Source: Okamejei kenojei (lineage: Eukaryota). From it: DNA of 64,000 nucleotides. The translations under genes and the position numbers were made by a program. Of the stretch, positions 1,732 through 60,120 are shown piece after piece (position 1 is the stretch's first letter; each line of letters opens with the position of its first letter). The notes beneath the pieces are model-generated. The model had not been told where the DNA came from and ran no database searches. It saw only the letters and a list, made by a program, of their open reading frames with translations. Location: positions 45,260,001-45,324,000 of the forward strand of contig CM069147.1 of NCBI GenBank assembly GCA_035221665.1, given 5' to 3'.

Positions 1732-1842
1732 GACTGCAGATGCTGGAATCTTGAACATAAAAGCAAACTGCTGGAGGAACACAGTGGCTCGGGCAGCTGT
1801 TGTGGTGAGAAAGAGACAACATTTCAAGTCAAGATCCTTCTT
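1732..1842 (-). mobile_element. Degenerate Penelope-like 3' module fragment
   Basis: actgcagatgctgg...tgctggaggaacacag...catttcaagtcaagatccttctt resembles the better copies at 15855 and 53975. Confidence 0.55.
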
Positions 1843-2162
1843 GTAGAGGGGGGTTTACAACTCACAGTCACAATCAGTTTTATTCGACTCAACTCAACTT
1901 TGAGGTAAATGTGTGGCCAAGGTTATGAGAAGTTACAGTTCCCTAGATACCTGTGGAATGGATATCATGATGGGGATGAAAGACAGTGGTTTCTCTTTTC
2001 TAATATTTAACTAGGTGTAATTTCTCCTCAGCCAGTCCAAGATGTCAGACAAGCATCTCAGTGGGATTCTTCCAGTCTCCTACTGTGAGTTCCTCAAGAC
2101 CTATAGGGAAATAACAGAAAGAGTCACTTTCAGCCATGTTCATTCCTCCAAGGAGTCCTAGA

Positions 2163-2472
2163 GGGGCACTGATGACAGAGCTGCTGCCTCACAGCGCCAG
2201 AGACCCAGATTCAATCCAGACCTCAGGAACTGTCGTGGAGTTTGCATGTCCTCCCTGTGGCAGTGTGGGTATCCTGCAGGTGCTCCGGTTTCCTCCCGCA
2301 CCCCAAAGTTGTGCGGTTTTGTAGGTTAATTGGCTGCTGGAAATTGCCTGAGTGTGTAGGGAGTGGATGAAAAAGTGTGATAACATAGACCTTGTGTGAA
2401 CGGCAGATTGCTGATTGGTGTGGACTTGATGGGCCGAAGGGCATGTTTCCATGTTGCATCTCTAAACTAAAA
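2163..2472 (+). mobile_element. HE1-type tRNA-derived SINE
   Basis: tRNA-like head (ctgcctcacagcgccagagaccca..ttcaatcc), core gtgctccggtttcctccc, LINE-shared tail gggccgaagggc..gtttccatg..tctaaactaaa. Confidence 0.85.
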
Positions 2473-2781
2473 TAATCAGCGTGAAAGGTTATGGCGGGAA
2501 ACAGGGAAATGGAGGTGGTCTAATGTCTAATGTCAGGTGATTTAATTTAGAATTTGCAACAAGCATGATAATGTTAACTCCTCCCTTTTGGGTGATCCAA
2601 ATTTCAGTTACGTCAATTAGTGCTAAAAATAATAATTTTCTATGTACAATTTCGCAATATATGATTTAAAATTAAGACTTTGCAGGGGACCACACGATTT
2701 AGTGGCAACTTGATGAACGCTTCGAATTAATTTGGACTATTTTTAGGAGCTATGGATGAGAGAATTATGTTAATCCACTGA

Positions 2782-3049
2782 GTTTAATTTAGTTTAGAAA
2801 TTCAGTGTGAAAACAGGCCCTTCAGCCCACGCCAACCAGCGATACCTGCACACCAGCGCTATCCTACATACAATTTTTACCGAAGCCAATTAACCGACCA
2901 CTGTGCACGTCTTTGGAATGTGGGGGGAAACCCACGCAGGTCACGGGGAGAATATAACGCTCTGTACAGGCAGCTCCCATAATCTGGATCAAACTTAAGT
3001 CTCTGGTGCTGGTAGGCGGAAAGTCTACTGCTGCATCATTGTGCCACCC
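2782..3049 (-). mobile_element. HE1-type SINE
   Basis: Reverse complement of the same head, core and tail; (tttag) tail at the left end. Confidence 0.8.
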
Positions 3050-4721
3050 CAAAAAATTGCAGAAATCCTTTCTCTTGGATTTTTTTTCCGTTAGATTTCT
3101 TTGTATCCACTTGAAGAACCTTGGTTTTATGTTGCTGTGTAAGGAAGCAGAAGCACTCCTTTGCTGGTCCTCTGGAGCATCAAACTCAAGTAGCAGTTCA
3201 AGTCCTGCTGTTCGTATTGAAATTGCAACCTTTTTTCTTGGAGGCAAGAGTTCCTTTATTCTAATCAAGAGGGGAAAAAAGAGTTTTGTTCCGTTTATAT
3301 GAAACTTGAAGATACTTCTAAATGGCAAGTTTGAATGTCAGTCATCCGCTATCCTTCAGCCTAGTACTAGGGGGCCTGTCATGCCTAGCAGCAGTCTTCC
3401 AAGTTATCAGGGTTTGATTTCATATATAAGGGGTCTTGAGTTGAGAGTTGTTCATGTCCATCAGCAAAACAAAACTACAAAAAACAAGATAGAAGCAAAG
3501 ATATTGATCAGTTTTGAAAGGCAAAGGATACTTTAGTCCAAGCCTTTCATAAGCTGTGAAAGCACTGGAAATGGTGCAAGTGGCAGACTCTCCAGGTCAT
3601 TCACAAACCTGAAGGACAATTCTTTTTTTTTTTTTTTTCATTCCTTTGTACAACTGGCTGAAGGCATCCTCACAGAAAGGAAATGAAAAAGTTGAAGTTA
3701 GCAACAAAGTATTTCAGTTTCATGTCATGAAGAATTGAGTGGGAGGTAAAGGTGCTTTCAACCTCATGAGCCGCACAGTTGCTTCCTCTAGGCATTTTGA
3801 TCATTCGGTAACACTAGCAAGTTTTTTTCTTGAGAATAATGCAAAATTGATGATTGATGTTTATTTTGAAAATAGAATTCTGCTGTGTCATTAAATGCAT
3901 TCATCAATCTGCTCATGGGTATCCCAAAGTATAATTTGAGTAAAAAGCCAAGCCTATTAATTCTTGGATGCCGTTGAAACACTCACAGTCAGCCGAACCT
4001 CACAATTTCATACAACTTTTAAATTTAACTTTATAAACGTAAGAAACACAAATGGCTTAAGACTGTCAAATTCCAAAATACATCTTCCAAAATAGCAACT
4101 GTTCCAATAGAGTTATGTCATATGCATAGATTTTGTTGCTCCATTGATTAAATTGTTTTTTCTGCAGAATAGCAACCAAAACTTCCCTCAGAGAAGTTCA
4201 GATCTTTGGATTTGAAGCCAGCAGTTCCGAATAATACGTTTTAAGGTTGAGCAGTGAGGATCCTGAACTAGTATGCGACTGATCAGCGACCATATTTTAC
4301 CAATGGCTTCCTCAGAGAGCCCAGTGGTGGGGTACAAGCTTCCACAGCACTCAGACTAGAAAACGTACCCACTGGTTAACCCAAAGCAACCAGTTGAGTC
4401 ACATCTATAGATTACCACCTGTCAAACATATCAAAGCAATGGCATGTCTGCGTATGCCTACAAATATTTTAAAAATTGAATGATTCAATATTAAATATCT
4501 TCAGTATTTCTAGCTGGGCCTGCCATTTCTGGTAGGAAAGTACTTGTGGGCCTCATTGATGAGCTGACAGCCCGATTCCCAATGGAAGATAGTGCTGGGA
4601 GCTGAGTCCAGGAAGGAAGTGGTTCTGGAGGCAGGCATCTGGCCTCATGCAGCATTAGAATGCCAGAATGTCTTTACTTGATCCTAAGTGGGCAGATGTG
4701 GCTTTAGTCATGACTAGACTT

Positions 4722-10289: not shown

Positions 10290-10372
10290 ACTGTCCTAAA
10301 GGTCCTGACCCAAAACATCACCTATCTATGCTGCCTGACCTGCTGAGTTATTCCAACACTTTGTGTCTTCTC
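10290..10372 (+). mobile_element. Short degenerate Penelope-like 3' module with target-site duplication
   Basis: gacccaaaacatcacc..atgctgcctgacctgctgagttattccaacactttgtgtc; flanked by taggattag(g/t)aga at 10277-10289 and 10373-10385. Confidence 0.65.
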
Positions 10373-11328: not shown

Positions 11329-11426
11329 TATTTAGTCTTAGTCCGAAGAAGTCTCAACCCGAAACGTCACTCATTCCTTCTCTCCCGGGATGCTGCCTGA
11401 GTTACGCCAGCATTTTGTGTCTACCT
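11329..11426 (+). mobile_element. Short Penelope-like hammerhead module with 15-bp TSD
   Basis: gtccgaagaagtctcaacccgaaacgtcac...; TSD ttgatattaggcaat at 11314-11328 and 11427-11441. Confidence 0.75.
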
Positions 11427-12473
11427 TTGATATTAGGCAATGTCATATCAGATGGGATAAAAAGATGTCCTTCAGGTATTGTGCAGTTTGGCCACATTAA
11501 TGTGTGTTGATGTTGGTGTAAATGGACAAATGGATGTCAAAAATAGGAACAGGAGTAGGTCATTCAAATTTCTGCAAAACTCAGTTTAAATTTGCTGATA
11601 TTTTCCTCAGTTCCAGCTCACAAATGCCTCGATTCTGTTACTGTCCAAAAATCTATTGATCATTCTCTTGAGTCATGGTCATTGATTTATTGTTCACAAC
11701 CCTTTGAGTTATGAAATTCCAACAAGTAAACATTGCCAAAGGAAGAAATGTCTGCTCATCTCAATCGCAAAAGACCCTTGTTCTGAACCAATGATGTCCA
11801 ATTCTAGACCTCCAAGCAAGAGAAACATCCTCTTAGCATCTAATTGGTGAAGTATCTCTGGAATATTCCATGTTCCAAAGAGGTCACCTCTACTCTGCTG
11901 GACAATATAGAGCTTGTCTACTCAACCTCTCCTCACAGGATCATTCTCCCAATCGATCAATAATTCTTCATTACACCCACACTCAGGCAAGTATATTCTT
12001 CCTCAAGGAAGCCAGAAAGCCCCTCCCCCCACCAGGATTCCACATATTATCATGAATTCCACAAGACTCTTTATAATTCCAGTAAGTATTCTTTATTCTG
12101 CTGCTTTAATCCTTTGACTCTGAAGACCAGCACACAACAATTATGCCCATGTTAACTGTGATTCTGGAACAAGACCTCCCAGGTCCTGCTGACTATCGAA
12201 AAAAATTTAAATATCAACATATTTTTCCTACCAATGTGAATGCCCTCATTCCTTTCCATTGTATTCCATCTTCTGTTTTTTTTGCTCATTCAGTTAACTG
12301 TTTAGATTTTAAAGGCCTCTTGCAGTCTCGTGGTTTCCTGTTAGTAAAATCGGCAAACCTAGATCTTTTACACATGATTCCTGTATCTGTGTTATTGATC
12401 CAGAGAGCTGAAACTGTAATACTGAAGTAAATGTCCATTCAAAATGCTAACCCAACAGAAAACATTTATTCCT

Positions 12474-12634
12474 GCCTGTATCCACCTATCACTTACCTGG
12501 CTTTGTCCCACCCTCACCTCTCTCCTCCCAACAGCAATCAGTGTGAAGACGAGTCCCGATCCAAAACGGTACCTATTTATGTCCTCCAGAGATGCTGCCT
12601 GACCCTCTGAGTTGCTCTAGCACTTTGTGTCACT
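12474..12634 (+). mobile_element. Penelope-like 3' module with 10-bp TSD
   Basis: cagtgtgaagacgagtcccgatccaaaacgg...agagatgctgcctgaccctctgagtt; TSD atttattcct at 12464-12473 and 12635-12644. Confidence 0.7.
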
Positions 12635-12897
12635 ATTTATTCCTACTCTCCATTTTTGTCACTAAATTGCATGTTCTTGCTTTATCAAAAGGAGCTTAAC
12701 TTTCAGTGACATAATGTGCCTACTTTTCTTAAACAATTGAAAATCTTAAGTGAACAGAAATTTAAATTGATATTTAGTTCAAAGCAATAAGTTGCATTAA
12801 TTTCAAAGAATAAAATGAACAAGTGTTTCTCGGTCATAGAAAGACCGAGGTGTGCAGTTACGCAGTTTCCTAGTGAACTATTCTCCTGAGTGTTAGT

Positions 12898-13030
12898 GAT
12901 AGACACTAAATGCTGGAGTAACTCAGTGGGACAGGCAGCATGTCTGGAGAGAAGGAATGGGTGATGTTTCGGGTCGCGACCCTTCTTCGGACTGCGTCAT
13001 GGGAGAGGGAGTTACAGAGATAAGGAAGTG
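12898..13030 (-). mobile_element. Penelope-like 3' module
   Basis: gatagacactaaatgctggagtaactcag...gatgtttcgggtcgcgacccttcttcggac. Confidence 0.75.
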
Positions 13031-15854
13031 TGGAGAAAGCCATTGTAGGCCCATAAAAGTGTAGATGTGCAGATGAGTAAAGGGTTGGGTTAAATGAGGG
13101 GAGTTGATCTCAGGTGTTTGTGATTTGGGTATCTACTTGCAAGGTGGTTGCGAATTTGGCACGGCGTCACATTTTTGTTTGTACATTGCATATAAGTAAT
13201 GAGATTACCCTTTTGCAGCACTGACCTTGAAATGCAAAAACTAAATTACCTTTTATTATCTGTTTTGTGCTGTCAGCTCCAAGCCTCCTGCACCCAGTAC
13301 CAACCTTAGCACAGATAACAGGAAGAATTAGGAAAAAAACACATATTTTCAGCTGCCAAACTTGGAGAATTCAGCAGGCTTAATTTTAATAAATGCAAGA
13401 TATCTGCAAGTCCAAAGCCAGTGCCACAAAACAACACAAACAAAGAGGACTTTAAACAGTTTTAGAACTGCAGAACATGAGAGGGACACGAATGAGCATT
13501 CAACCCCTCAAAGACTCTGCCATTCAGCAAGATCTAAACTGACCTTTCACTTCATTGTTTTCGTGCCCTATCCACCTATCCCTTGATTCTCCTAATCCCC
13601 AAAATCTATTTAGTTTCTTTGTTTTGAAAGCATTGAATGACTGAGCCTACACGGCCCTCAGTTGTAAATTGATCAATTTTTGCGTGAGGTTTCCCTATCA
13701 TATTCCTAAATGCCCTATTGTTTATTTTGAGGATGATCCTAAATGCTGGTTCTCTCAGGCAAGGGTCTGAGTATTGTCTGAGCTCTCCATGACTTGTATT
13801 TCAGTGAGGTTACGTCTCATTCTTCACGACAAAGACTTAACATGTGTAATCTCTGCTCATACGACAGATCGACATCTCAGGAACAAATAGAGAATCTTTG
13901 CTGCATTGCCCACCACTACTCTTCTATAGCATCTATCCTTCCACACATTAAGACATACATATGGTAAATAACAGTCCAGGTGAGGTCTCTGTAAAGCCTT
14001 CAGAACTGCAGTAATATACTTAATTTCTACTAAATTCCTCTAAAGGCTAAACCGCCTTTCTATTTGCATCTGCATGTGAGCTTCCAGTGACTCGTGTACA
14101 AGAATGCCCAAGACCCTTTGAACATGGGTTGAATTCAAACCATTTCTTGATCTCCCACCATTTAAACAAATACTCAGCATTTCTGTTTTATTTATCAAAA
14201 ATGATCACACATATGTATTTTTCAAAAAATAAATTCCAAAATGTTAGTTATAGATGCTGCGTGTCCTCTTGGGTTATTCCAGCACTTTGTGTGTCTCTTA
14301 AATTAATTGCTCTTTTTTGTGGTCTCTCAAGAATTCAGAATCCAATGAAATTATAATACGTGAGCAATAAATCATGGAAATCTGAAAAGGGAAGAGGATT
14401 ATCTGCTAGGATTTTCTCACTGGAATCTGTCACTAAATTCACCATCTCTTCTCACTGAATGTACTTGGGAGGCGTTGCAACTGGAAAATTAAGTTAATAA
14501 TTTTGCTTTTTCTCATATGGTCATCAAACAACGCACGCCAACTGTTGGAAAATAACCTGGAGATATAGGGCAGAGCAGCGCGCGGAAAGCGTGCACTGGG
14601 CGAAATATTAATTTTAACCCTGTCCGGCGTTAGGATGATTATTTCCATCTTCTCGTGAGCAGTGCATCTTTGATATACTCTGGCTGCGAGTGATCTGACC
14701 TTTCATTTACCCTTTTGAAGGGGCACTTGGTGAACTTAGAACAAGCTCAGGTACTCAACCCTGGCTTTGAAAATAAAACAAGCACTTCCACCGAGGATTC
14801 CATCGGGGCAAAAAGGACACGTGCTGGAGCCCCGAAATTTTCTTCAGTTCTGGATTTCAGTTTTTGCATGGAAATGCTATTTCTATTTCATAAAATAATG
14901 TCCATCCTCAAGCAACGCGATCAGAGGGACAACTATCACATCATGTCATTATCCTTGTCACGAGCACTCTTTGTACAAAATACATTGCCAAGGTGATGTC
15001 AGCCCACTGCTTGTTCGCCACATCAAACATTTTGTGTCATTACACGACAGTGAATTCCGCTATTGGGATTGTTAAATGCAAACCAACCACTTTATGTAGT
15101 TCTTAAAAATATATGTACAGGGTGTGCACAAAATCACGTCCAATTTGATTGTTGATTGGGAATAATTTGATGGATCTTCACGCTAGGTTCTTAATTTGGG
15201 CTTCAGTGCAGTAGAGAGGGGTGCTTGGAAGGGGTGAGCTAGTGAAGGCTTGAGGGGGATATGTGTTAACAGCCCAGCAATTGACAAATTCATTCAGGAC
15301 TGTTAAAACACAAGCACTGAAATAAAGGTTTAAGATGTGATTGATCGAGTGGCAGTTACAGACACCATGTTTCTTTTATCATGAATTGCGCCAAAATTGT
15401 AAAATCATGCGGTATGCTTTTGTGCTTCGTAGTGATAGCAAGCAGAGGAACTCGCCTCACATGCCTTCGTTTTAAAAGATAGCTATTAACATATGGGTAG
15501 GATTGTCACTGTTGTCCTTATGTGTCGAGTCTGCCTTCACTTTGGCAAGACTTTACACACAGCCATCACATATTGTTTAATTAATACTCCAGTGTTCTTA
15601 ATCTTAACCTTCTAGTAACACATTCTCAAGTGCAAACTTCAATGCTCAACATCATTGAATAATCAATACGGTGAAATAGTGAATATGTTAAAGCCGAATG
15701 GAAGAGTGAAAAACAACAAATGCGGCAAATACATTGTCCACCCGTGAGTGGCAATACAGGACCGGATTGAGCTGTAAAATCAAAATCTGGGCAATGCATT
15801 ATTACCAGGATTGTACAGTAGGTTACAATTACTGAAGATCCAATGAGAAAATGG

Positions 15855-16240
15855 ATTGAAGATAGACACAAAAAGCTGGAGTAACTCAGCGGGACAGGTA
15901 GCATCTCTGGAGAGAATGAATGGGTGACCTTTCGGGTCGAGAGACTTCTTCAGACTAGTTAGTGAAAAGGGAAACAAGAAATATAAACGATGATGTGGAG
16001 ATATAAAGAACAATGAATGACAGATATGCAAAAAAGTAACGATGATAAAGGAAACGGGCCATTGTTAGTTGTTTGTTGGGTGAAAACAAGAACCTGGTGC
16101 GACTGGGGTGGGGGAAGGATGGAGAGAGAGGGAGTGCAGGGGTTACTTGAAGTTAGAGAAATCAATATTCATATCACTAGGCTGTAAGCTGCCAAAGCGA
16201 AATATGAGATGTTGTTCCTCCAATTTGCGCTTAGCCTCAC
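15855..16240 (-). mobile_element. 3' end of a Penelope-like retroelement: GIY-YIG endonuclease C-terminus plus 3' UTR with hammerhead motif
   Basis: Minus strand 16238-16143 reads EAKRKLEEQHLIFRFGSLQPSDMNIDFSNFK*, matching the R..E...I......P.G.N end of PLE GIY-YIG domains; hammerhead-like core at about 15925-15955. Confidence 0.85.
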
Positions 16241-18395
16241 AGCCAAAATTGATCTGTTTCCAGTGCAAACAGGCCCAAGGATAAACCTGTACCTAAACCA
16301 GCACTAAAAACCCAGTCTATCCCAGGCCACAAGCAGTGTGGCATGTGGCAGGAAGTTATTACTCAGGCCCAACGTGCCATGGAAGTAATGCAGCAGGGAT
16401 ACAATCGTTGCCACATTATGGTTGACTGGAAGCTCTTGAAGCTGCCACATCAGTTGTCTTCCTCTCCTTCACCTCAAAATTGTATTAAACTTACAAAGTA
16501 AAATTTAAAAACATATTTAAGCCTATTTTCTGATTCATTTATTGCATCTTGGGTCACTCTCGTATCAAATATTGAAATTAGAGCCTTATTGTGGAGGTTA
16601 CTTAAAGAAAATGTTCAGACTGGCGATGTGAGAAGCTGCAGGGAGAAGGAGACAAGTGACTGGAAAGTGTTTATAACCTATTGACCAAAGTAGCCCATCC
16701 AGACACACAGCAAAATTGTTGACAATCACCTTTTCCCTTTTTCTTTTCACCCCCAATTTCTAAGTGACCTATTTCAGCAATAAGACAAATCCTTCTACCC
16801 TCGTTTCACAAAGTACTCTTTTCACAGTGGTTTCCTTTTCCTCTGAGTTGGATCATTTTCAAGTGACTTAATCAGACATTTGAAGAAATCTCAATGGACA
16901 TAAACAAGAGCGTAAGTGTGTTTCGTGAAATGTTGTCAAAACTCCCTCATGGTGAGAGGCAATTTTACAGTTTAGAGATGCAGAGCAGAAACAGGCCCTT
17001 TGGCCCACCGATGTAGAACGAGGAATCGCCTGGGTCCTCACTTACAACACCAGAAAGAGGATGCACTGCAGATTGTGTGGCGTTGCATAGAAAAAAACAA
17101 AGGAGTAATAAAAACAGGGCCACCTTGATTCTTCTTTAAAAGATTCAATTATATAAGAGCCCTGCTGCAATTTTCCTGGAAGGCGTTCCGATAGGATTAT
17201 TATTGAAAGACAATGTGAATGTTCATTTTGAATGGCAATTGTGTGTGAGCTGTATCCTACCACAGGAAACAGGTACCAAGATGTGAGGCAGCTGGCTCGC
17301 ACAGCACATGCAACATAGCCTCATGGTTTACAAACAACAGAAAGCCTTTGAAGAAAACCTGTCACTGTGATACTGACTAAATGGCCAGGGTGCATATTGC
17401 AGCCACATAAATACAATACACAAAGTTGATAGTTTTTTTTTTCATTTAGTCCTGTGAGGCAGATATTTCATATCTCTTCCTGCAGGCTATTTTCGACACA
17501 ATGAGCAAGAAACACTATCCAAAGGCTGGCATCGCTCAGCTACTTGAAATGTGCTTTGGGCCAAGGACATTAACATTGTCATGAGCTGCAATCAAATCAT
17601 GTTTAAATATTTGCCAGTGGATTGGAAAATGCAATGGTACAGATATGGCAAGAGAAGGAGTAACAGGACACCTATTTGCCATTATGATGGAGATATCAGC
17701 CCACTCTGAATATGTATAACCCAGAAAACGTATTGATTTTTTATTTGGAATAAGAATCACCAACCTGAAACTGTCAGATTCCTTTGTTAATAGCTCATCC
17801 CCTGTAGATGCAGTCCACCACAAACCAGTTTTAATTGTAATGCATGCACTCAAACAAACAAACACAAGCTGTCCTGGACCATTCACCTTTTTAAATCCAT
17901 CTTTCCAAATGAACAAATCGTCAATAGTGGCTCAGAATTTGCCACAACCCGGGCATCTCACAACATAATTGTTTTTAATAATCTTTCCCTTCGTTATGAA
18001 TATTTTTTAGCAGCAATTGTTGGGAGCATGATGAAGCTTTTGACAGCCACTGATAATGATGGCTTGAAGCTGACAGGGCAGGCCCCACCATCTTGGTGAG
18101 CTATGGGACCAAACGTTTATCTCCTCAACGAGTGATGGTCAAAGATTGACGGTGCAGTGGTTCCAACTGTTGGGACTGGGACTGTTCACAAGCAAACTCT
18201 CAACCTTGCCTCAAATTGCCGAATGACTGACATGTCAACATCAACATCTGCAGTAAACTCACCGCTATTTTCCCAGTCTTCTTTATGTGTTTGAACGTGG
18301 TCTCATTTGTCCACGTACTGAACACTTAGTGCTGAAGCATACCAGGGATGGCGGAACTCTAATTCCATTCACCGCAACCAATACCTGACCTATTA

Positions 18396-18452
18396 AGTTA
18401 CTCCAACGCTTTGTGTCTTTTTCTGTAAACCAGCATCTGCAGTTCCTTGCTT
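18396..18452 (+). mobile_element. Penelope-like module terminal fragment
   Basis: agttactccaacgctttgtgtc...aaaccagcatctgcagttcctt. Confidence 0.55.
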
Positions 18453-18597
18453 CCATGTTTTGCTGCTCTATTGCAAAATCTACTCAAGGTATGTCTACTT
18501 TGAAGAAGTTCTCCATACTCCGATGGTAGTTCTGTGATACCCTCTCTCATTGATCCTCCTCTGCGATTCCTGCCACTCTCCTGCTCTTCCACCGTGT

Positions 18598-18950
18598 TCA
18601 GTTCCGTTTAGTTTATTGCCACATGTTCCAAGGTACAGTGAAAAGCTTTTGTTACGTGCTAACCAGCCAGTGGAAAGACAATACATGATTACAATCGATC
18701 CATTCACAGTGTACAGTTACATGATAAGGGAATAGCGTTTAGTACAAAGTAAATGTCATGACGAAGTCATGCCCCACTGCCTCAGTGACCCAGTCTCGAA
18801 CTTGACCTTGGGTGCAGTGTGTGAGTGGATTTTGCACATGGCTCCCTTCTCCCAACCCGGTGCTCAGGTTTCCTCCCATACTCCAAAGGATGAAAACAAA
18901 ACTAAATGGGAATGTTTTGACATAGACTCAATGGGCCAAATGACCTTCCT
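18598..18950. mobile_element. Rex1/L2-type LINE tail fragment followed by a degenerate HE1-type SINE
   Basis: ccaaggtacagtgaaaagcttt...catgattacaat is shared with 42966-43120; ctgcctcagtgaccc...ggtgctcaggtttcctcccatactccaaag is SINE-like. Confidence 0.55.
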
Positions 18951-20003
18951 CTCGTGAGAAAATGCGGAATATATATTGCCACTCACAAAGAGGAAATGTT
19001 TTTGGAGGATTTTGGGTTTTTTTTTTTGCTTTTGCCTTCTGCTTTATTATATTTAGTACTTCACTCTTTCAACATTAAGAATCGTGGAGCATTAACTAAA
19101 CAATATGTAATCCCCATGTGTACACACTTGTCCATGTTCCTTTAGTGTGCTGCTTTTGCAGTAGGGAGACTTGCATTCCATTCACCTGGGCTGGATTGGA
19201 ACATGGTTGCAGAGATGAAAAGTTGATGTCTCACCCGCTCCAATGCCAAGAAGACCTTTGAACTGACTGTTTGAAATAACACCATCTATTCCATTGCTTT
19301 CATGTGGTCAAGGTGCAATTAAACCTTGAGCTCGAGGTTAACACAGGGTGGATTTGTGTACACCTCAGTGCGGAGATGTCCATGGTGTATACTAAGCTCA
19401 GAGACACGGAACACTCACTTGCAAACTCATTTGCTGTTTTGAGTCTGCAAGTTGTGCTCTATAACTATTTGCTTTTAAAACTGCAGCATTTCAACACAAG
19501 TTCACTTGCCTTTCATTATTCTTTTATAAAGTCTCTGATGTACTGAGGTGTGGGTAGTTACTAGGCAGTATTTATTTTATCTTTTCAAAGTGATTAATAT
19601 TTTCTTGTTACCCTGGACTCCAGCCGAGATAGTAAGTAACTGAGCTGGTCGACAGCCGATTTGATGTTGGACATTTCCCAATACAGAACAGATCAATAAC
19701 ACTAGTGCGGCAATGTACTGCTGTGATTGTGACACCACATGGCTTGGCATCTTCCTCGTACGATTCAGCTGAACTTTAGGAAATGGGGAGCATGTTCTCT
19801 GAATCGTACCACGCAATGGTGTTTGTTTACAGAGCCTCCCTCAATCCCCACCCCCCCCAACCCTGCAAGTGCTGGGATGCATCTCTTGCGCAAAGCCATT
19901 TGTCCGCTGATGAAGGGTTTCAGTTATAATGAAAACCACAGCACTTGGGACTGTGAGCAGAAAGGACAGAGATGCATAAAATCTTGACAGTTTTAAAAGA
20001 GTA

Positions 20004-20229
20004 AGGGCCTGTCCCACTTGGCCGTCATTTGCTCGTCACTTCCTCAACATCATTTATGCGTCACGACGCACGACGGGCACGTTGTGACCCGCACGTGATG
20101 CGCGCATGGTGTGTGGCGACGTAGGCAGTGACTCCAGGTCGTGCGCGACGCCCCAGGATTTTGGGATGTACAAAATCTTTGCGCGCCATCTGCATGGCGT
20201 GCAAATGACGCCCAAGTGGGACAGGCCCT
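20004..20229. mobile_element. PIF/Harbinger-like MITE, CpG-rich
   Basis: TIR agggcctgtcccacttgg / ccaagtgggacaggccct; 3-bp TSD GTA (20001-20003, 20230-20232); same subfamily as 58124-58313. Confidence 0.85.
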
Positions 20230-21170
20230 GTAGATGTCAGCTATTCCCATCAGCGGAGGTATCAAAGACACATTTACATTGATTGCCAAACATCCAGGGT
20301 GATGCAAGGAAAAAGTTATTTGCACAGCCTCTGTGGTGGATACAGATTCAGTTGTCGCTTTCAAAGGGAATTTGATAAATATTTGGTGATCAAAGTTGGG
20401 GAAACGGGGCAATGAAGGTAACGGGTTTGTGCTGAAGGACAGAATGGTGAGCTGTAATGAATTAGCAGGTTTATGAAATGCAACGTCTATTGCAGAATGA
20501 AACTCTTATTAATTCTTGTGTGAGATTGAAATCAGGTGAGATTATAACTGCATCCTCACTAAAGTCAACCACAAGTTGGATCCTGGTGCATGGCAGAGCT
20601 GAGACCACACTATTGGTGTTTTATATCTTTGAGGCCCAGCCCGTTTCAAGGTGACTTGTCCATCTCGGGCCTAAATTCATATTTTAGTTTAATCGGGTCT
20701 GATTCCCAGATCAAAAGAAACTTCAAATGTAATCACATGTTGTTCTATTGATCTATCCCTTTTAACCCATTGAGATTCTCAGAAGAGGAGCTGTGAATCC
20801 ATATAAAGCCCTCGTACCTATATTTAATTTACAGAGAACGTCTTGTGTTAACCGTTCTTGTATCTGTGCAGTAACTCCCTGCTCACTTGCCCCAGTAATG
20901 TATTCCTTCGTAAAGGACACTACCCACTCCCCTCCATGCCTGACCTCCCTCATGTGATGTACTTCTCAGACCGCAGGGCCAGAACTACACCCTTACTTCT
21001 TCCCCCCCCCCCCCCCAACACTCCCCATTTGTGTAATGTAAAGCCTGCATGTCTCTGGCTAGCAGTGCTCTGCAGACCTGATAGTATATACATAAAACTG
21101 ATGGAAGAGGCAATCAAAAGCTACATTGTGAAATACCTGCAGAGAGTGAAAGGGAGAGTGTGTGAGAGAG

Positions 21171-21173
<3 letters not shown>

Positions 21174-32385: not shown

Positions 32386-32404
32386 AAATACTTGATTGAT
32401 TGAT

Positions 32405-39884: not shown

Positions 39885-40845
39885 TGCAGTTGTTTGAATT
39901 TGGCAGGCATAATTTGTCATTGTTGTAACATACGTAATATTTTAGGTTTAGTTAGAACTTCTTGCTCTGGAATCTAGAAATTTCAGTCATTGTGAAAAAT
40001 GAAATGATGTAGAATGCATTAAGAAACCGCGAACTCCATGGCTTTAGACTGTGCAGCAGGACTGATGCATTTTATCCATTCTGAGTGTGGGCATAAGGAT
40101 TTATGATAGTAACAGCTGATGCATACCTTTCAATTTCCAGGTAATTCCAGTTCCTTTCCATTGCCATTGAAACCATTAACTGGTTTGTACCAGACAGACA
40201 ATCATCTGAAGCATCTCTTGGTCGAGCTTTTTATTTATTAGTTTCTCTTGAAAATTATCCAAATTCAGAAGGATTTATCAATACCAAAAATGATAGCTTA
40301 GGTGTTTTATTCTTTCTGGAATTCATCTTTTCATGGGATTATTCTTACAATTATCATTTGCTGCAATCCCCTTTTGCTCATTAATTAGCCTGTTTCTGTA
40401 TGTCCCCAACAGGCATCATTATAATTGCAGGTAATCTCAATCTGCCGTTGCTTAGTTTCTCGCAACATAAATCTGAAAGCAGACGCAACAGAAATATGGC
40501 CAGAAAGTTTGTGTTAGCGCAGATGGCAGAGAGAGCCAGAGTATTGCTAAGGGAATGGTCTTTACTGAATGCTGAAAGGGAATGGGAAGATGTTTCATGG
40601 CGGCATCATTTTGAAAGAATGAACAATTGCATGCAGAGACTGGTGGTGTGGAAGACGGAAACAAGAGCAGGAGTATATTTCCTATCCTTAATCTAAGTAC
40701 AGTATAACGAGTGGGGTGACTTTGTGAAGCCTCAGAGCTGCCCTTGTTTCTATATCCATTAAGTTTCCAAAAAAGCCTGAAGAATAGTTATCGGGAACAA
40801 GAATCTTTGCTGATATTTCTTCCTTTGGATCCTTTTGTTTTCCAC

Positions 40846-44211: not shown

Positions 44212-44836
44212 AGGGCCTGTCCCACGTTGCCGATTTTTTTCGGGGACAGTCACAGTCGTAGCAGGTCGCCGAAAAAACGACGACTGGACCCCCCCCCCCC
44301 CCCACGACAATGTCTATGACAACCTACCACCAATGTCTACTGGCAATCGGCGACCCATTAGGACCTCCACCTATCGCCACACCTACAACAACCGATGGCC
44401 ACACAGGCGACAACCTACGATATCCGAAGTCAACCTACGACCACACCTACGACAACCTACGTCCACCCGCGACAAGCTACAACAAGGTAAGATCATTCAG
44501 TCGCCGGTACCTGTCACCAGTTGACGTAGGTAGTCGCCAATGGCATTCACCGAAGTCATCACCCGGCGACAACCTACGTTACCAGGCGACAACCTGAGTC
44601 ATCCTGGCGACATCCTACGACAGCACCTACAACAGGAGGAGACAAGCTATGTCAATCCCACAGTCGCCAAAAGATTTTGAACATTTCAAAACCCAGCGGC
44701 GACAAGAAAAAAATTACGACTCTTTAGGCGACTCGAGGAGACAACTCACAACCATACAGGTGTCACCCTGCGACCAAGTGGCGACAGCCTAGTCTCCTGT
44801 AGTCGCCGAAAAAATTGCCTGAGTGGGACAGGCCCT
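44212..44836. mobile_element. PIF/Harbinger-like MITE (625 bp) with an internal array of cgacaacctac motifs
   Basis: TIR agggcctgtcccac / gtgggacaggccct; flanks TTA and TAA; subterminal inverted ttttttcgg..gac / gtcgccgaaaaaa. Confidence 0.85.
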
Positions 44837-45498
44837 TAACAGGAGTGGTTTCACCTACTACAGAAGGTGATGAAACCCAAATTGCTAAACTTTTCAAGGT
44901 GGCGCATAGATATCTGATTGTAAAAGGCATCAATGAGTGTGGAGAAAAGCAGAAAGATGATACTGAAATAGAGGATCCGTCATGATCATACTGAAAGGCA
45001 AAGCAGGCTTTAAGGGCTGAATAACATACTCCTGCTCTAGTCTAGATACAACGTTTCAAAATACTCATTGCTTTATCATACAGTTACTTACTTTGACATA
45101 GGGAATATTTAATTCTGCATTCAACATGTCTGTCGATTCCCCTGAACATTATCCAGGAATTTTGCCATTTTTCAGTGGCAAACTGGCAGAATAATAAATT
45201 CCTAATAGGAACATCACATGCAACGACTTAAAATAAAATTTGGTTTAAGAAGGGAGTATTGAGTACTTTTCTCACCAGTCTCCCAGATTCTTGTAAGCAA
45301 TTAAATTATTAAATGTAAAAAAATAGTTCTTTCTCATATACATTTAATGCCATATTAAATTATGTCTACATTACAATTTTCATCTAGAACTCATTACATT
45401 CGCAGTAGTTATTCAGCAACCACTTTGTTTAATGTAAGCTGTGTTGAAGACCTGTCATTGTAAGGCATTGCTGAAGTAGATATTTTTACTTTCCATTG

Positions 45499-45630
45499 TG
45501 TGTCGGAAGGAACTGCAGATGTTGGTTTAAACTGAAGAGAGACACAAAAAGCTGGAGTAATTCTCCAGAGACAGCATCTCTGGAGAAAAGAAATAGGTGA
45601 AGTTTCGGATTGAGACCCTTCTTCAGACTG
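45499..45630 (-). mobile_element. Penelope-like 3' module
   Basis: ggaactgcagatgttggtttaaac...gtttcggattgagacccttcttcagactg. Confidence 0.75.
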
Positions 45631-46095
45631 TAATAAAGATGAGGGAGTGGGGGCTCGGAAAGCGGAAGTCATTAAAGAGAAGAAGGGCATGCGAGGCATC
45701 TTGGAAATAGGTCGTTTGCTGAGATTGGAAACCAGGGGTATAGGATGGAGGTACTGTGGAAATTATTTCCGCTGGGACAGGAGCAGGCAGCTAAGCTTGG
45801 GTCTGCCAGGGCATTAGTGCCCTTTTGGATTTTGGAGAGAAACGATTGGTGTTCTCTAGCATTTGCATCTCTGCAGTCAAGTTCTGTTCCCTGAACCCTT
45901 TTTCAGCTGAATTTCTCCAGCTGGTAACTTTGTATCATTTATCCCTGATTTCCCTTGTTATATGTCCCGATTTATTCTTTTGCCAGGATGAAGACTACAA
46001 TAAATATTTGTCAACCCTTTGAATTAATTGCCAGTTTTGGCCAAATATTCTTATAGTTACTGTGCTAAAGAACTCAACCATATTATGGTCAATTA

Positions 46096-46541
46096 CTCAA
46101 AACCCAGCAAAAAATCCTCTTCCTCAGCACCCCTGCCAATTTGATTAACCCAATCTATATGTAGATTGAAGTCACCCATTATAACTGTTTTGCCTTTGTC
46201 GCACGCATTTCTAATTTCCTGTTTGATACCATCCCCAACTTCTCTGCTACTGTTAGGTGGCCTGTACACAACACCCACCAGCGTTTTCTGCCCCTTAGTG
46301 TTTTGTAGCTCTACCCATACCGATTCCACATCCTCCAAGCTAATGTCCTTCCTTTCCATTGCTTTAATCTCCTCTCTAACCAGCAACGCTACCCCACCTC
46401 CTTTTCCTTTCTCTCTATCCCTTCTGAATATTGAATATCCCTGGATGTTCAGCTCCCAGCCTACGTCACCCTGGAGCCATGTCTCCGTGATCCCAACTAT
46501 ATCATAATCATTAATATCTATCTGCACGTTCAACTCGTCCA
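46096..46541 (-). mobile_element. CR1/HER1 LINE ORF2 AP-endonuclease domain fragment
   Basis: YDIVGITETWL, RRDR..GKGGGVAL, GVVYRPPN, IMGDFN motifs; truncated at both ends. Confidence 0.95.
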
Positions 46542-47885
46542 ATACTGTATTGTACCTGGCTGCTACTTTTTTAAATGTGTGGCAAACACCTATTCTTGGT
46601 TAAATTGTTGTACTCATTCTATGCAAATTCATTGAAAAAACGGACTGAAGTTTTAATACTAAAATAGTGTTTTGTGGGAATAGTTGTCCATATACTGACT
46701 GCCCTCGTGTATCTGTTGCACAATACAAAGCAGCTGTGTTTGCATTGCGCCCTCACACTTATCACATAACTAAGCTTTTTGGACCCATAATTTGTTGATG
46801 ATGCCTTTGGCACTCTTGGACAACTGCCAGCTTCTTTCCATTTGCATTGTGTGGGCTGTTTTGCTGTAAGACAGGGTGTTAAAGATGCCATTTACAATCT
46901 GCTAATTGGAACAAAAGAATACTGTATGCCACAGACATCACCATATAGTATACCTCTAATTATTTTATATTTACTTAACATCAGAATTGCTGAGTCTAAA
47001 TTATGCCTGTATGAATATATGAAACAGCATTGTGTGGATGACAATTAAGAGTGATGGAAATTAATGTTTTTAATCTAGGCTGCTGGGTGGGGAGGGAAGC
47101 AAGCATACTGTGTACCAGTTTATATTCATTTGGTCATTATAATTATCCAGTTATACAGTGCGAAACTGGGCTCAGTGCTTTTGGAGTTGCAAATTGGTGC
47201 CCGCAGCACAGATGTACATGTCTGAATTGCATTGGATGCAATATTGGTGAGCATGTAAATGTGCTCAGTGAACAGCAATTGAGTTGGTGTGCAAAGGGGC
47301 CAGATCATGATGACAATCCTCATGCCTCGCGAGTATGATACGAACTGCCAGCCATGTACTCTCTCTAATTGCTGAGAGTGTGTTGTGTAACAGAAAGGAC
47401 CTCCAGGGCCCTATTTAAAAAGATTATCCATGACTAACAGGTCAGTTGCTGTTTGATTTCCTCTGACTGTTGCTTTGACTCCACAAGTATTTGGTGCTTT
47501 CCACAGCTATTTCACGTGGCAAATTGCTACACGAGACTCTGCGACAGGCGCTGAGGGATCTTAAGCTGATTCTCACATGGTCGAGACCACGAGAATGAAC
47601 AGAGGGTATCCAAAGCATCCAAACAAATAGAAAAGATGGAGGAGGAAAGGGTGGGGCCATGTCTGTCGGACCCGCTATCCACTTGGATATGAGTTGGGAA
47701 CCATTGTTGAGATCTGGCAAGTTGGGCGTGTAACTATCATATTCTCGAGAAGCAGGCATACTGTAGGAACCATACTTCCCTTCCAAATGCTGAGAGAATA
47801 AATGGTTCAATACTGTGCTAAAACAACAGGTTAACGAATGAAACGCATTGAAACTTTCATTGAAAGTTTCATTGAGACTTACCGA

Positions 47886-48263
47886 ACAGTGAAAGGCTAG
47901 GATAGAATGGGCGTGGGGAGGATGTTTCCACCAGTTGGTAAGTCTAGGACTAGAGGTCATAGCCTCAGAATTAAAGGACGTTCCTTTCGGAAGGAGATGA
48001 GGTGGGATTTCTTTAGTCTTAGGTGAATTCCATATTTATTCCATAGTTGAATCTGTGGAATTCGTTGCCACAGAAGGCTGTGGAGGCCATCAATTGATAT
48101 TTTTACGGCAGAGACAGATAGATTCTAGATTTGTATGGGTGTCAGGGGTTATGGGGAGAAAGCAGGAGAATGGGGTTCGGAGGGAGAGATAAATCAGCCG
48201 TGATTGAATGGCTGAGCAGACAATGGGCCGAATGGCCTGCTCCTGTCACTTATGACCTTATGA
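47886..48263 (+). mobile_element. HER1/CR1 LINE 3' fragment
   Basis: ggactagaggtcatagcctcagaattaaaggacg...; tail cttatgaccttatgac. Confidence 0.9.
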
Positions 48264-51515: not shown

Positions 51516-51885
51516 GTCATGGGTCATAAGTGATAGGAGCAGAATTAAGCCATTTGGCCCATCAGGTTTACTCCGCCATTCAATCATGGTTGATCTATCT
51601 CTCCCTCTTAACCCCATTCTCCTGCCTTCTCTCCATAACCCCAGACACCTGTACTAATCAAGAATCTATCTATCTCTGTCATAAAAATATCCATTAACCT
51701 GGCCTCCACAGCCTTCTGTGGCAAAGAATTCCACCTTCATCACCCTCTGACTAAAGAAATTCCTCCTCATCTCCTTTCTAAAGGAACGTCCTTTAATTCT
51801 GAGACTATGACCTCTGGTCCTAGACTCTCCCACTAGTGGAAACATTCTCTCCACATCCACTCCATCCCAAGCCTTTCACTATTCG
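51516..51885 (-). mobile_element. HER1/CR1 LINE 3' fragment
   Basis: DVERMFPLVGESRTRGHSLRIKGRSFRKEMRRNFFSQRV; same subfamily as 47886-48263, inverted relative to it. Confidence 0.9.
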
Positions 51886-53974: not shown

Positions 53975-54199
53975 GATAGGCCCAAAATGCTGGAGTAACT
54001 CAGCGGGACAAGCAACATCACTGGAGAGAAGAAATGGGTGACGTTTCGGGTCGAGACCCTTCTTCAGATTGAAGAAGGCTCTCGTCCCGAAACGTCACCC
54101 ATTCCTTCTCTCCAGAGATGCTGCCTGTCCCGCTGAGTTACTCCAGCATTTTGTGTCTATCTTCGGTTTAAACCAATATCTGCAGTTCCTACCTACACA
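53975..54199. mobile_element. Palindromic Penelope-derived mini-element with two hammerhead-like cores
   Basis: Arms 53975-54066 and 54070-54161 around a 3-nt loop; intact core on the minus strand at 54040-54067; extra tail to cctacaca. Confidence 0.85.
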
Positions 54200-54892
54200 T
54201 TTAGCAATTTGGTGACCTGCATTTTAAAGCATCTCCAGTGCACCATACTGCTGGTGACTGGAGTGAATGCTGAGACTGATAGATTATGCACAAATTAAGT
54301 CAGCTATTTTTTCCTGGATGATTCCAAGTGTCACGCTTTCACCAAGGCAAGTGGCGAGTATTCCATTGCACTACCGACTTTGTACCATAGATATAGTAGA
54401 AACCCCTTCTGGCTACTGTCCACCTCTTGTAATTGGCTTATTTTTGCTTGGTTTAAGTCAATGTAAAGAAGAATTTTCAGCCTGGTCCCCATTGATCAAT
54501 TTTATTTAGACTCTTTAAATATTGTACTTGGACCAATCGTGCCTTGATGTCAAGGTTTTTACTCTCAACTCACTTCAGAAAAAATTGGCAATATTTGGAC
54601 TAGGATAATGAAGGCAGCATCTGACCTGAATGGATTGAACCAATGTAAGTTATTGATCCGTAAGTGCCGCTTGATAACAATGTTGATAGTTACTTCCATC
54701 ATTTTTTGAAACTTCCAGGGTGGGTTCGAGGGATGCTAATTATCCACATTAGACTTATTCTACCTTTTGGGGAATGGACATTCTTGGGCAATTTTCAACA
54801 TTGTCAGGCAGATGTCACTGTGTAGCTATTTTGAAAAAGTTTGGCTTAAGGCAAAGTTAGTTGTGGAGCACACGTCTTCAGCATCACTGCCA

Positions 54893-55897
54893 CATCCATT
54901 GCCTTCGGTGTTTCTTGACATTACATGGAGTGAATCGGATTAGATGATGGGTAGCAGCTGTGATGAATCAGTCCTCTACACTGAATGAGATTGAGGGAAA
55001 CCATTTCAACGTTATCATTTGCTCTCTTGTGCTGTGTTCTGCTGTCATTGAGGATGGAATCCAAAACAATGGCACTTCCTTCCACTAGTTGTTTGGCATT
55101 TATGACTCAATTTGTAGAGCTCTGACCCATGGGATTGTGAAGTTCTGTCTAGTGCACACTGCCTCAATGATTAAGTGTGCGTGTGTAGGAAATAACTGCA
55201 GATGCTGGTTTACACTGAATAGACACAAAATACTGGAGTAAGCGAGACAGGCAGCATCTCTGGAGAGAAGGAATGGGTGACGTTTCAGGTCGAGACCCTT
55301 CTTCAGTCTGAAGGAGGGCCTTGACCCGAGAAATTTGCCCATTCCTTCTCTCCAAATATGCATGTGCTCCTTTGTATCTCCATGTGCTGGTTTCATCCAT
55401 TGCCTTCGGTGTTTCTTGACATTACATGGAGTGAATCGGATTAGATGATGGGTAGCAGCTGTGATGAATCAGTCCTCTACACTGAATGAGATTGAGGGAA
55501 ACCATTTCAACGTTATCATTTGCTCTCTTGTGCTGTGTTCTGCTGTCATTGAGGATGGAATCCAAAACAATGGCACTTCCTTCCACTAGTTGTTTGGCAT
55601 TTATGACTCAATTTGTAGAGCTCTGACCCATGGGATTGTGAAGTTCTGTCTATTGCACACAGCCTCAGTGATTAAGTGTGCGTGTGTAGGAAATAACTGC
55701 AGATGCTGGTTTACACTGAATAGACACAAAATACTGGAGTAAGCGAGACAGGCAGCATCTCTGGAGAGAAGGAATGGGTGACGTTTCAGGTCGAGACCCT
55801 TCTTCAGTCTGAAGGAGGGCCTTGACCCGAGAAATTTGCCCATTCCTTCTCTCCAAATATGCATGTGCTCCTTTGTATCTCCATGTGCTGGTTTCAT
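54893..55897. repeat. 501-bp tandem duplication (54893-55393 and 55394-55894), each unit containing a partly palindromic Penelope/hammerhead module
   Basis: Units are nearly identical by eye; CAT microhomology at the junctions. Confidence 0.95.
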
Positions 55898-58123: not shown

Positions 58124-58313
58124 AGGGCCTGTCCCACTTGGGTGTCATTTGCGTGTCACGATGCGCACGTGATGCACGCATGGCGCGTGGTGAGGCGTGG
58201 TGACGTAGGCCGTGACACGCGGACGCGCGTGGCGCCCCAGGATTTTGGGATGCACAAAATCTTCGCGCGCCACCTGCATGACTCGCAAATGATGCCCAGG
58301 TGGGACAGGCCCT
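58124..58313. mobile_element. PIF/Harbinger-like MITE
   Basis: TIR agggcctgtcccac / gtgggacaggccct; TSD TAA (58121-58123, 58314-58316). Confidence 0.88.
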
Positions 58314-58694
58314 TAAGAACATCAATTGGCTTACAGTAATGGCAGCTTTGTCAGGGTGAGCTTGTGAATTTGGCAATTCTAGCAAATTTGAGATGCAGTC
58401 TCGAGCAGAGCAAAGAATGAGAAAAATAGTATTTGCAAAATGGAGCGCAGATAAAGGTTGAGCCCATCATTGGTTTATTATTGGTTTAGCAATTGTGTTA
58501 GGCAAGAGTTTGGCAACTCAGTAAAACCTGTCACTGTCTGGTTATTTCAGAAACATCAAATGTTCTGATGAGGCTGCGAAGCCCTTCATTTCAAACATTA
58601 AAGAACGGTAATCAGTTTATGGATGAATAATATTTGTGGAGAAGCGGGTGAGGGTGAGGATTAAGATGCTTGGAATGAGGCCTCAGTCTCATTT

Positions 58695-58985
58695 CGAGAT
58701 ACAGCGCGGAAATGGGCCCACCGAGTCCACATCGACCAGTAAACCCCGCACGTTAACACCATCCTACACACACTAAGGACAATTTGCAGTTATACCAAGC
58801 CAATTAACCAACAAACCTGTAGGTCTTTGGAGTGTGGGAGGAAACCAAAGATCTCGGAGAAAACCCATTCAGTCACGGGGCAAACGTACAAACACTGTAC
58901 GGACAGCACCCGTACTCGGGATTGAACCCGGGTGTCTGGCATTGTAAGCACCGTAAGGCAGCATCTCTACCACTGCGCCACTGCC
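58695..58985 (-). mobile_element. HE1-type SINE with well-preserved Pol III boxes
   Basis: Minus strand A-box tggcgcagtgg and B-box ggttcaatccc. Confidence 0.85.
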
Positions 58986-59940
58986 AACTTCTAATATCTC
59001 TGTAACTTTAAGAGGAGTAACACCTGCACCACTGTAATCAGAATTGGAAACCAGTAACTCTGTGAATTCTTTAAAATTTGTAATTTTGGGGGAAAATGGT
59101 GCAGCAAATGTAATGTTGGTCAATAGCAGCATTTGTTACTTGTAGGTTGCCACACCCATATAGATTGTGTTTTTGTATCGGCAATGCTTTGCAGAAGTTC
59201 CAGAAGCAGTCTGTAACAAACTCTTGAAACTACATGCATCAATCCGTTTTGTTGTACAATGGACTTGGTTCGAGGTTAAGAACTTATTTAGCTGACACAC
59301 ACTTCTTATCGAGTCTACATCACAAGATTAGAAATTGTTCAGCCAGAGCTGAACACACTTCTCGGCATCTGCATTCAATGGCGTCTTGAGCCTCTTGTGC
59401 GTAGTGGTGGAAAGATTGGTGGAAACAGCGCCGCGACGTGAACTCTCTTTCCTTGACCCCACACACACAATGATCTGTGGCACAACTTTAGTATGGCTGA
59501 AATACAAGCAAATCAAGCACTAGTAGAACAGAGTTGAATGGTAGCGTAGATAAACCAAACTTTGTTTGAATCTTGGATTAAACAGACTTATAATATTGCA
59601 TGCAATTTTGCTCACCATGGTATGAAGAGGAAAGTAGAGGAAACGGAGAGGATGTATAGAAGATTTACAATGATAATACCCAGAAAGAATGAACACACTG
59701 GGTCTCTTTTGCAACAATAGGTCTCCAAAGTGATATAAAGTTCTGGAAGAGTGGACACAGGGAGAACTTGAGGAGACCAGCAAAGATGCAATATAAGCCG
59801 GTGATCAAGAACTGATGTCGGGAATTTGACAGAAATGTCATTATCCAAAGTGAATTTGGTGCAGCCATTCTTAGTACTTTATAAAGGTTGGACCAAATAG
59901 CATAGATTCGTTTAAAAGGAGGCTGGACAAGCAAATAAGG

Positions 59941-60120
59941 TGCAGGAAGAAACTGCAGATGCTGGTTTACACCGAAGATAGACTCAAAATGCTGGAGTAT
60001 CTCAGTGGGACAGGCAGCATCTCTGGACAGTTGCTTCTATTCCATTTCTTCTCTCCAGAGATGCTGCTATCCAGAGATGCTGCCTGTCACGCCGAGTTAC
60101 TCCAGCATTTTGTGTCTATC
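59941..60120. mobile_element. Palindromic Penelope-derived element with the central hammerhead region lost; 13-bp TSD; inserted in an old CR1 tail (about 59560-60220)
   Basis: TSD caagcaaataagg at 59928-59940 and 60121-60133; arms gatagactcaaaatgctggagta / ttactccagcattttgtgtctatc. Confidence 0.8.

Follow-up and report, generated by a model that had tools for sequence, protein, structure and literature searches.

The window analysed here is a 64-kb stretch (64,000 nt) of the Okamejei kenojei genome (contig CM069147.1 of assembly GCA_035221665.1, positions 45,260,001 to 45,324,000 of the forward strand), which contains a dispersed family of short repeats with a hammerhead ribozyme motif. These repeats most probably (probability about 0.82) represent insertion products that were dead on arrival, left by a Neptune-type Penelope-like retrotransposon (Penelope-like element, PLE) that encodes an endonuclease, and formed by the mechanism proposed below. 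Coordinates refer to the window.

Assignment to PLEs is based on the copy at 15855 (minus strand), which continues upstream into the last codons and the stop codon of an open reading frame (ORF); its hammerhead core is located about 190 nt past this stop codon. Protein P0011, a shark relative, matches positions 16146-16238 (minus strand) with 58% identity (tblastn, E 3.6e-8). P0012 matches the same ORF end (BLASTP, E 2e-12) and reads on into a peptide resembling the hammerhead frame of the window. P0011 gives hits to a reverse transcriptase (RT) domain (RVT_1, E 9.3e-5, below its cut-off) and a GIY-YIG nuclease domain (E 8.6e-5, above the cut-off), with a CX4CX2C linker ahead of the nuclease; the linker itself lies outside the window. 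A CX2-5CxxC linker between the RT and the endonuclease (EN) is a mark of Neptune and Nematis elements (PMC8557442). Eight hits were obtained with the ORF end in phmmer, one of them (P0005) unrelated; the source was named for four of the five hits looked up (shark and rays), and a second search led to longer shark proteins. A word-index protein search with the 49-aa ORF end gave no match. The frame following the hammerhead retrieved three unnamed short proteins without an RT, and the ORF start was not located.

Since the 15855 copy runs into a GIY-YIG C-terminus matching shark RT-GIY-YIG proteins, the repeat corresponds to the pseudo-long-terminal-repeat (pLTR) end of an EN-bearing PLE. As judged by sequence comparison, the repeats are 5′-truncated pLTR-plus-tail ends of an endonuclease-bearing, probably Neptune-type PLE of cartilaginous fishes. 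The term "3′ modules", used in the original prediction, is only half apt, since the pLTR of PLEs also contains the start of the next unit (PMC3846280, PMC11167929).

Two further traces of Penelope sequences were observed. An older, broken remnant of a Penelope-like RT thumb without an adjoining hammerhead module is located at 40492-40668 (minus strand; tblastn with P0012, E 6.8e-4, 37% identity). A Penelope endonuclease C-terminus forms the end of three predicted ray or skate host proteins, P0003, P0004 and P0007 (VKORC1L1, neuromedin-U receptor 1 and ATP synthase subunit C), which reflects either exonisation or mis-annotation.

All 15 loci listed in the original prediction are matches of one repeat family, and no further locus was found in the window (blastn with six loci; nhmmer with a profile built from 18 arms). 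The loci comprise ten solo copies (six plus, four minus) and five head-to-head palindromes. Palindromes 55183 and 55684 are a single insertion copied by a 501-nt tandem duplication whose units differ at three positions, which reduces the total to 14 insertions, approximately one per 4.3 kb. Nearly all copies are 50-400 nt long and reduced to the pLTR end, with no ORF between inverted arms. The core is missing at three loci (14250, 18396, 59941), so the count of 15 hammerhead-bearing copies holds for family membership but not for insertions or cores. The features are listed below; C3 to C17 denote core positions, TSD a target-site duplication, and short and long ends the two classes of 3′ end discussed later.

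1733-1855, minus strand: solo copy of a divergent subfamily, long (tailed) 3′ end, degenerate core, TSD not found.
10290-10372, plus strand: solo copy, short 3′ end, start about 5 nt before C3, damaged core, TSD 10277-10289/10373-10385.
11329-11426, plus strand: solo copy, short end, start 14 nt before C3, U4 altered, deletion in stem II, TSD 11314-11328/11427-11441.
12474-12634, plus strand: solo copy with short end, beginning 69 nt upstream of C3; essential bases of the core altered at three positions; TSD 12464-12473/12635-12644.
12897-13036, minus strand: solo copy, short end, U4 and G16.2 altered; flanking contigs of related organisms B and F enter the copy.
14250-14298, plus strand: solo fragment without core, short end; contigs of organisms B and D cover the copy.
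15857-16262, minus strand: longest copy, with ORF end, pyrimidine-rich spacer, a hammerhead that lacks the 15.2-16.2 pair and has stem II shifted out of register, and short end.
16143-16238, minus strand: GIY-YIG endonuclease C-terminus, 31 codons plus stop (tblastn with P0011, BLASTP with P0012).
18363-18452, plus strand: solo fragment without core, long end.
27491-27717, unstranded: palindrome of a short arm (minus) and a long arm (plus), 88/91 identical, with TSD 27479-27490/27718-27729; organisms D and F lack the insertion.
27588-27615, plus strand: best-kept minimal hammerhead core, C3 to C17, with 4-bp stem II, palindromic stem III and 2-bp stem I; predicted cleavage after 27615.
31994-32383, plus strand: solo copy with long end, beginning 258 nt upstream of C3, changes at G8 and G12, TSD 31980-31993/32384-32397 (1 mismatch).
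45497-45640, minus strand: solo copy, long end, essential bases intact, 15.2-16.2 pair lost.
53977-54205, unstranded: palindrome of a short arm (minus, core 54040-54067 fits the descriptor) and a long arm (plus), one-base centre 54068, probable TSD 53967-53976/54206-54215.
55183-55361, unstranded: palindrome of a long arm (minus) and a cut-off arm (plus), one-base centre 55307, in the first duplication unit (54893-55393).
55684-55862, unstranded: palindrome, duplicate of 55183, in the second duplication unit (55394-55894).
59941-60120, unstranded: palindrome without cores, long arm (minus) and short arm (plus) starting about 2 nt past the cleavage position, central filler, internal 16-nt duplication, TSD 59928-59940/60121-60133.

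The tandem duplication at 54893-55894 (three differences) is either a recent event or an assembly artefact.

Insertion by a retrotransposition process is indicated by the TSDs. All five proposed earlier were confirmed, at 10277/10373 (9 nt exact, 13 with one mismatch), 11314/11427 (15 nt), 12464/12635 (10 nt), 27479/27718 (12 nt) and 59928/60121 (13 nt), and those at 31980/32384 (14 nt, one mismatch) and 53967/54206 (10 nt, one mismatch; weaker) were added. TSDs are thus present at 7 of the 15 loci, and each contains 60-80% A+T (60% in the window). Among 400 random pairs of 30 × 30 nt, for which the search windows were about half as wide as for the real TSDs, exact repeats of at least 10 nt occurred in 0/400, repeats of at least 10 nt with one mismatch in 6/400 and repeats of at least 12 nt with one mismatch in 0/400.

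Independent evidence was provided by contigs of three related organisms (about 3% divergent; X6, X12 and X17) aligned to 12400-32399. Record 7 of X12 and record 13 of X17 join 27469 to 27709, skipping 239 nt that equal the palindrome plus one TSD; the displayed piece of X6 record 28 also ends at 27469. Empty sites in two related species identify 27491 as a true and recent insertion, which fits its arms differing at 3/91 positions. The copies at 12898, 14250, 15855, 18396 and 31988 are entered by flanking contigs from two or all three organisms, and these insertions are therefore older and shared. Contig depth in the related organisms reaches 0.7-3.8 million in module bins versus 10-65 in unique bins; it is not usable as a copy number, yet the family is plainly very abundant. 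Together with the PLE link and the motif fit, this depth supports the earlier description of a repeat that derives from Penelope, carries a hammerhead motif and is present in very many copies. The exact motif had 0 matches in metagenome contigs and 0 in viral contigs.

The 3′ ends fall into two classes, reaching 6-17 nt past a common anchor in 9 of 17 arms and 36-57 nt in the remaining 8, with none between (ends placed by eye from TSD or homology loss; arm 55R and the duplicate were excluded). Behind 32385, the tail end, 918-1134 records per DNA run (three runs) break into AT-rich, low-agreement, unrelated flanks. An optional tail of 30-40 bp, inverted pLTRs and TSDs of 8-10 bp are known from PLEs (PMC3846280). 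In PAc (Poseidon of Anolis), two internal RT starts, cuts in AT-rich DNA, extension of both strands and uncleaved RNA as the main template were reported (PMC11167929). The two classes are the known Penelope tail, matching two PLE reverse-transcription starts, and are unrelated to cleavage. In PAc, too, genomic 3′ ends form two classes, which lie about 40 nt from each other on the downstream side of the hammerhead, targets are AT-rich, and nothing points to cleaved RNA as template. PAc differs in belonging to another clade and in having been studied by biochemistry in vitro, as opposed to sequence alone here; palindromic products are not described for it in the available text (PMC11167929).

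For the 5′ ends, only those bounded by a TSD or a palindrome centre were counted (n = 8); six unbounded insertions were excluded because the subfamilies share sequence only from about -3 relative to C3. The bounded ends are at -5, -14, -69 and -258 in solo copies, at -5, -1 and -1 in palindromes and at about +30 in 59941; cleavage is predicted after +27. Five of the eight are situated between -14 and -1 (binomial test against three nulls, p from 1e-3 to 4e-6, for a range chosen post hoc), and three of these five are palindrome centres. Among TSD-bounded solo copies the proportion is 2/4 (p 0.01-0.07). The 5′ ends are concentrated at the 5′ edge of the core, a pattern that the palindromes drive, and show no accumulation at the cleavage site. 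Given this concentration, ends may be shaped by structure at the 5′ edge of the ribozyme. Short copies had been said to start 10-20 nt upstream of the core; near-core starts do exist, but the bounded ones lie 1-14 nt before C3. The idea that ends are shaped by ribozyme cleavage found no support: plotted against the GUC, 7/8 bounded 5′ ends of the window lie away from the cleavage site, and the only one close to it belongs to the rearranged copy 59941.

The clustering could also arise if the template RNA began there, at an initiator-like TCAGT start or at a 3′ splice site (pyrimidine tract plus CAG) beside helix I, but this is rather unlikely. It would account for the five near-core ends, and TCAGT is presumably a match to the initiator consensus. 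The pLTR intron of D. virilis stops at the 5′ end of helix I (PMC4209133), and a promoter with an initiator is described in this species. However, the two solo TSD-bounded copies that start in this region do so 9 nt apart, no shared 5′ exon is seen upstream, and the sharing of sequence among subfamilies only from about -3 biases the unbounded copies. Loose ends before 27583 and a joint into 27585 were rejected as evidence of an RNA start, as the subfamilies share sequence only from about that point.

The palindromes carry information on how copies are joined. An inverted repeat of the element itself, TCAG-T-CTGA (4 bp), overlaps the CUGA box. The centres of 53975 and 55183 are located exactly on it (two of four independent centres), and that of 27491 is a few bases further up. 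A long arm is paired with a short one in all three palindromes with both ends intact. The arms of 27491 are 88/91 identical, yet show 12-14 body differences from the majority sequence; since the two arms of a locus resemble each other more closely than they resemble arms of other loci, the palindromes are not copies of one master. Read on the strand with the long arm first, 53975 and 55183 both have T as their centre base. This T is predicted if two cDNAs anneal, whereas fold-back of a target-primed long cDNA predicts A. This suggests that two separately primed cDNAs were joined head to head, which is consistent with the extension of both target strands by PAc.

Alternatively, one strand could fold back and prime itself at TCAG-T-CTGA, with the endonuclease then trimming the tail from the first-made arm. 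Centres lying exactly on the inverted repeat would be expected in this case as well, and self-priming on an antisense template (PMC3846280) and EN-mediated tail resolution (PMC8557442) are published readings. Fold-back is possible but doubtful: besides the unexpected T, it needs a shorter first-made arm and gives no account of solo copies ending at the same two sites.

Both core boxes, the extra base 9/10.1, the G10.1-C11.1 pair and the palindromic 15.2-16.2 pair, which requires a second copy, agree with the minimal type I hammerhead as published. A descriptor of this motif matches four arms (27588+, 54067-, 55306-, 55807-) and nothing in 30 shuffles; the fit is complete at 27588 (plus) and 54067 (minus), and 55306 (minus) and 55807 (minus) have a G-U at 10.1-11.1. 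All four arms sit within palindromes; these fold to long hairpins (-82 to -183 kcal/mol), in which the core would be buried whichever strand is read. Minimum free energy folding of seven pieces revealed no significant hammerhead fold, and a proposed hammerhead dimer reached -12.7 kcal/mol versus -21.3 kcal/mol for the best alternative fold. A longer stem I formed by splicing was also considered and rejected, a check by eye finding no fitting donor in two long copies. A single minimal metazoan hammerhead did not cleave in vitro (PMC4209133), and the PAc hammerhead cleaved only with protein (PMC11167929); single copies of the present family are probably inactive.

Metazoan PLE minimal type I hammerheads (PMC4209133) share the CUGANGA and GAAA boxes, the extra base 9/10.1, G10.1-C11.1, a palindromic 15.2-16.2 pair and the lack of loop 3, and likewise occur in very large numbers, mostly as solitary motifs; cartilaginous fishes are not mentioned in the available text. 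Stem II measures 4 bp here versus 7-8 bp in S. mansoni motifs. Stem I is 2 bp, as in a published D. virilis variant, compared with 4-5 bp for helix I of type I (PMC4209133).

Decay of the inserted cores was compared between strands. The earlier observation that non-palindromic plus-strand cores are all damaged stands (4/4), but minus-strand solo cores are damaged equally often (4/4; in 15855 and 45499 only at paired positions). Essential bases are changed at 9/48 positions on the plus strand versus 2-4/48 on the minus strand, the range reflecting an uncertain alignment of 1732 (Fisher p 0.05-0.23), at a body divergence of 28/239 and 36/258, respectively. The trend follows the direction of the original prediction but is not significant. 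In 12 of the 18 arms, CpG cells are changed more often than others (22/86 versus 84/913, p 2.7e-5), and non-CpG essential core positions (10/115) change at the background rate. Decay thus proceeds at the background rate except at CpGs, where it is fastest; G12 and G16.2 are CpG positions of the core.

No host exon was found in the window by Pfam searches of stop-free segments and a crude splice-site scan, by which short or Pfam-less exons could be missed. The Pfam scan covered all 426 segments of at least 52 aa; of the shorter ones (38-51 aa), 152 passed a filter and 150 of these were scanned, the number at 40-51 aa having been 356 before the filter. Only a LINE (long interspersed nuclear element) endonuclease and a Tc1 transposase scored above cut-off. 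The window could be one large intron, but nothing shows the copies to be intronic, as had been assumed. Without a host gene, sense and antisense are undefined.

That the ribozyme is active in host transcripts, that cleavage sets the ends of copies and that selection removes or breaks sense cores in introns, as the original prediction would have it, is therefore highly improbable. The excess of essential changes on plus-strand solo cores at similar body divergence and the start of the 59941 plus arm about 2 nt past the cleavage position would agree with it, and tandem retrozymes are under-represented in Xenopus introns (10.64898/2026.07.22.740005). On the other side stand the broken minus-strand cores, a sample of 4 + 4, the lack of any depletion of plus-strand solo copies (6 vs 4), the location of the window's best core (27588) on the plus strand, the bounded 5′ ends off the cleavage site, and the behaviour of minimal hammerheads in vitro cited above (PMC4209133, PMC11167929). 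The literature search showed no publication on orientation bias of PLE hammerheads.

The short module could instead be an independent non-autonomous family, either SINE-like (short interspersed nuclear element) or a non-LTR (long terminal repeat) retrozyme, with a transcription and copying cycle of its own. Contigs that join the tail end (32385) back to the module start (27585) number 40-42 in X6, X12 and X17 alike, and pLTR-derived non-LTR retrozymes were reported in one chondrichthyan (10.64898/2026.07.22.740005). However, no head-to-tail tandem units with hammerheads are present in the window, the 5′ ends range from inside the ORF to past the core, and arms closer within a locus than between loci do not point to one master, making an independent family improbable. 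Non-LTR retrozymes (PMC7229834; 10.64898/2026.07.22.740005) share a type I hammerhead in a pLTR-derived repeat; they form head-to-tail tandems with mostly canonical ribozymes and circular RNA, whereas the window contains dispersed solo or head-to-head copies. Retrozyme-like head-to-tail arrays may be present elsewhere in the genome.

Comparison with EN-bearing PLEs of the Neptune type (PMC3846280, PMC8557442) shows a shared C-terminal GIY-YIG domain, 5′ truncation, TSDs of variable length, head-to-head inverted ends, a junction palindrome and a tail on one end only. The present family differs in that nearly all copies consist of the pLTR end only (50-400 nt, about one per 4.3 kb), and its TSDs are 10-15 nt versus 8-10 in rotifer PLEs (PMC3846280). 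Hammerhead-bearing Penelope ends, tails, inverted pLTRs and TSDs have all been described previously, and the family itself is ordinary. No publication on it in skates, rays or sharks was found in the literature search; Repbase and Dfam, outside that search, probably hold the family, and the supplements of preprint 10.64898/2026.07.22.740005, likewise outside it, may list it.

In the mechanism proposed for the dead-on-arrival copies, the RT/GIY-YIG protein would cut AT-rich DNA with a stagger of 10-15 nt. Reverse transcription of uncleaved RNA would start at either of two internal sites, which lie about 100 and about 140 nt past the first core base, giving short and tailed ends. Most cDNAs would stop early, and the pLTR hammerhead, situated within the first 140 nt copied, would therefore be multiplied far more than the ORF. 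Two cDNAs stopping at the 5′ edge of the hammerhead could join head to head via TCAG-T-CTGA, yielding TSD-flanked palindromes with one long and one short arm. Inserted copies would then decay neutrally, fastest at CpGs, two of which lie within the core.

Several points weigh against this interpretation. The ORF start, the pLTR limits and the clade are derived from a 31-codon overlap and shark relatives, with no full-length element; a partial-tandem full-length copy with an intact RT-EN ORF was not found in the window. Rfam gave no hammerhead match in the window at E up to 1 (four weak other hits), two-sided compensatory change in stems I and II was seen in 0/6 pairs (alignment A1, decayed copies), and stem I has at most 2 bp; the ribozyme identity is for these reasons based on motif fit and context. 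The plus arm of 59941 starts close to the cleavage position, though in a copy rearranged by central filler and a 16-nt duplication. The plus-strand excess of essential changes also belongs here, as do the tail-to-start joints, by which some spread through tandem units is possible. The joining model is drawn from two or three junctions.

Other repeats were noted in the window. An unrelated palindromic element, resembling a miniature inverted-repeat transposable element, occupies 1381-1665 (89-nt arms, 94% complementary), and its end motif resembles those at 20113-20234, 44213-44240 and 58197-58318. A Tc1/mariner transposon with 64-nt inverted ends and helix-turn-helix and DDE hits is located at 62035-63728. 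LINE fragments are found at 46096-46599 (minus strand, apurinic/apyrimidinic endonuclease), at 25960-26445 (minus strand, end of the 3′ ORF, presumably CR1/L2-like) and at 39138-39856 (122-nt arms in inverted orientation). The two nested inverted repeats at 47900-48221 and 51566-51867, separated by about 3.5 kb, are 85% complementary, and a low-complexity array rich in ACAACC/ACGAC lies within a GC-richer element at 44213-44620.

Second-strand synthesis of PLEs and the role of their hammerhead are stated to be unresolved in the available portions of PMC11167929, PMC3846280 and PMC8557442, and the literature search showed no publication on twin priming in PLEs. Tentatively, the palindromes of the window could preserve in the genome the outcome of twin target-primed reverse transcription, in which a dimeric Penelope protein would prime both nicks on two RNAs, one per start site. 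The cDNAs would stall at the 5′ edge of the (possibly protein-bound) hammerhead and anneal via the inverted repeat. If so, the part played by this edge in integration would be to signal where cDNAs stop and join, not that of a nuclease, and the abundant ray and shark copies would let Penelope second-strand synthesis be read from genomes.

At about one copy per 4 kb, the genome should hold enough junctions to decide between twin priming and fold-back, as well as enough intronic copies for a proper test of selection against self-cleavage. Copies with presence/absence differences, such as 27491, provide clean phylogenetic markers, and module peptides inside predicted ray and shark host proteins disturb gene annotation. 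The palindrome junction is the one lead worth pursuing, as a record of how Penelope integration is completed.

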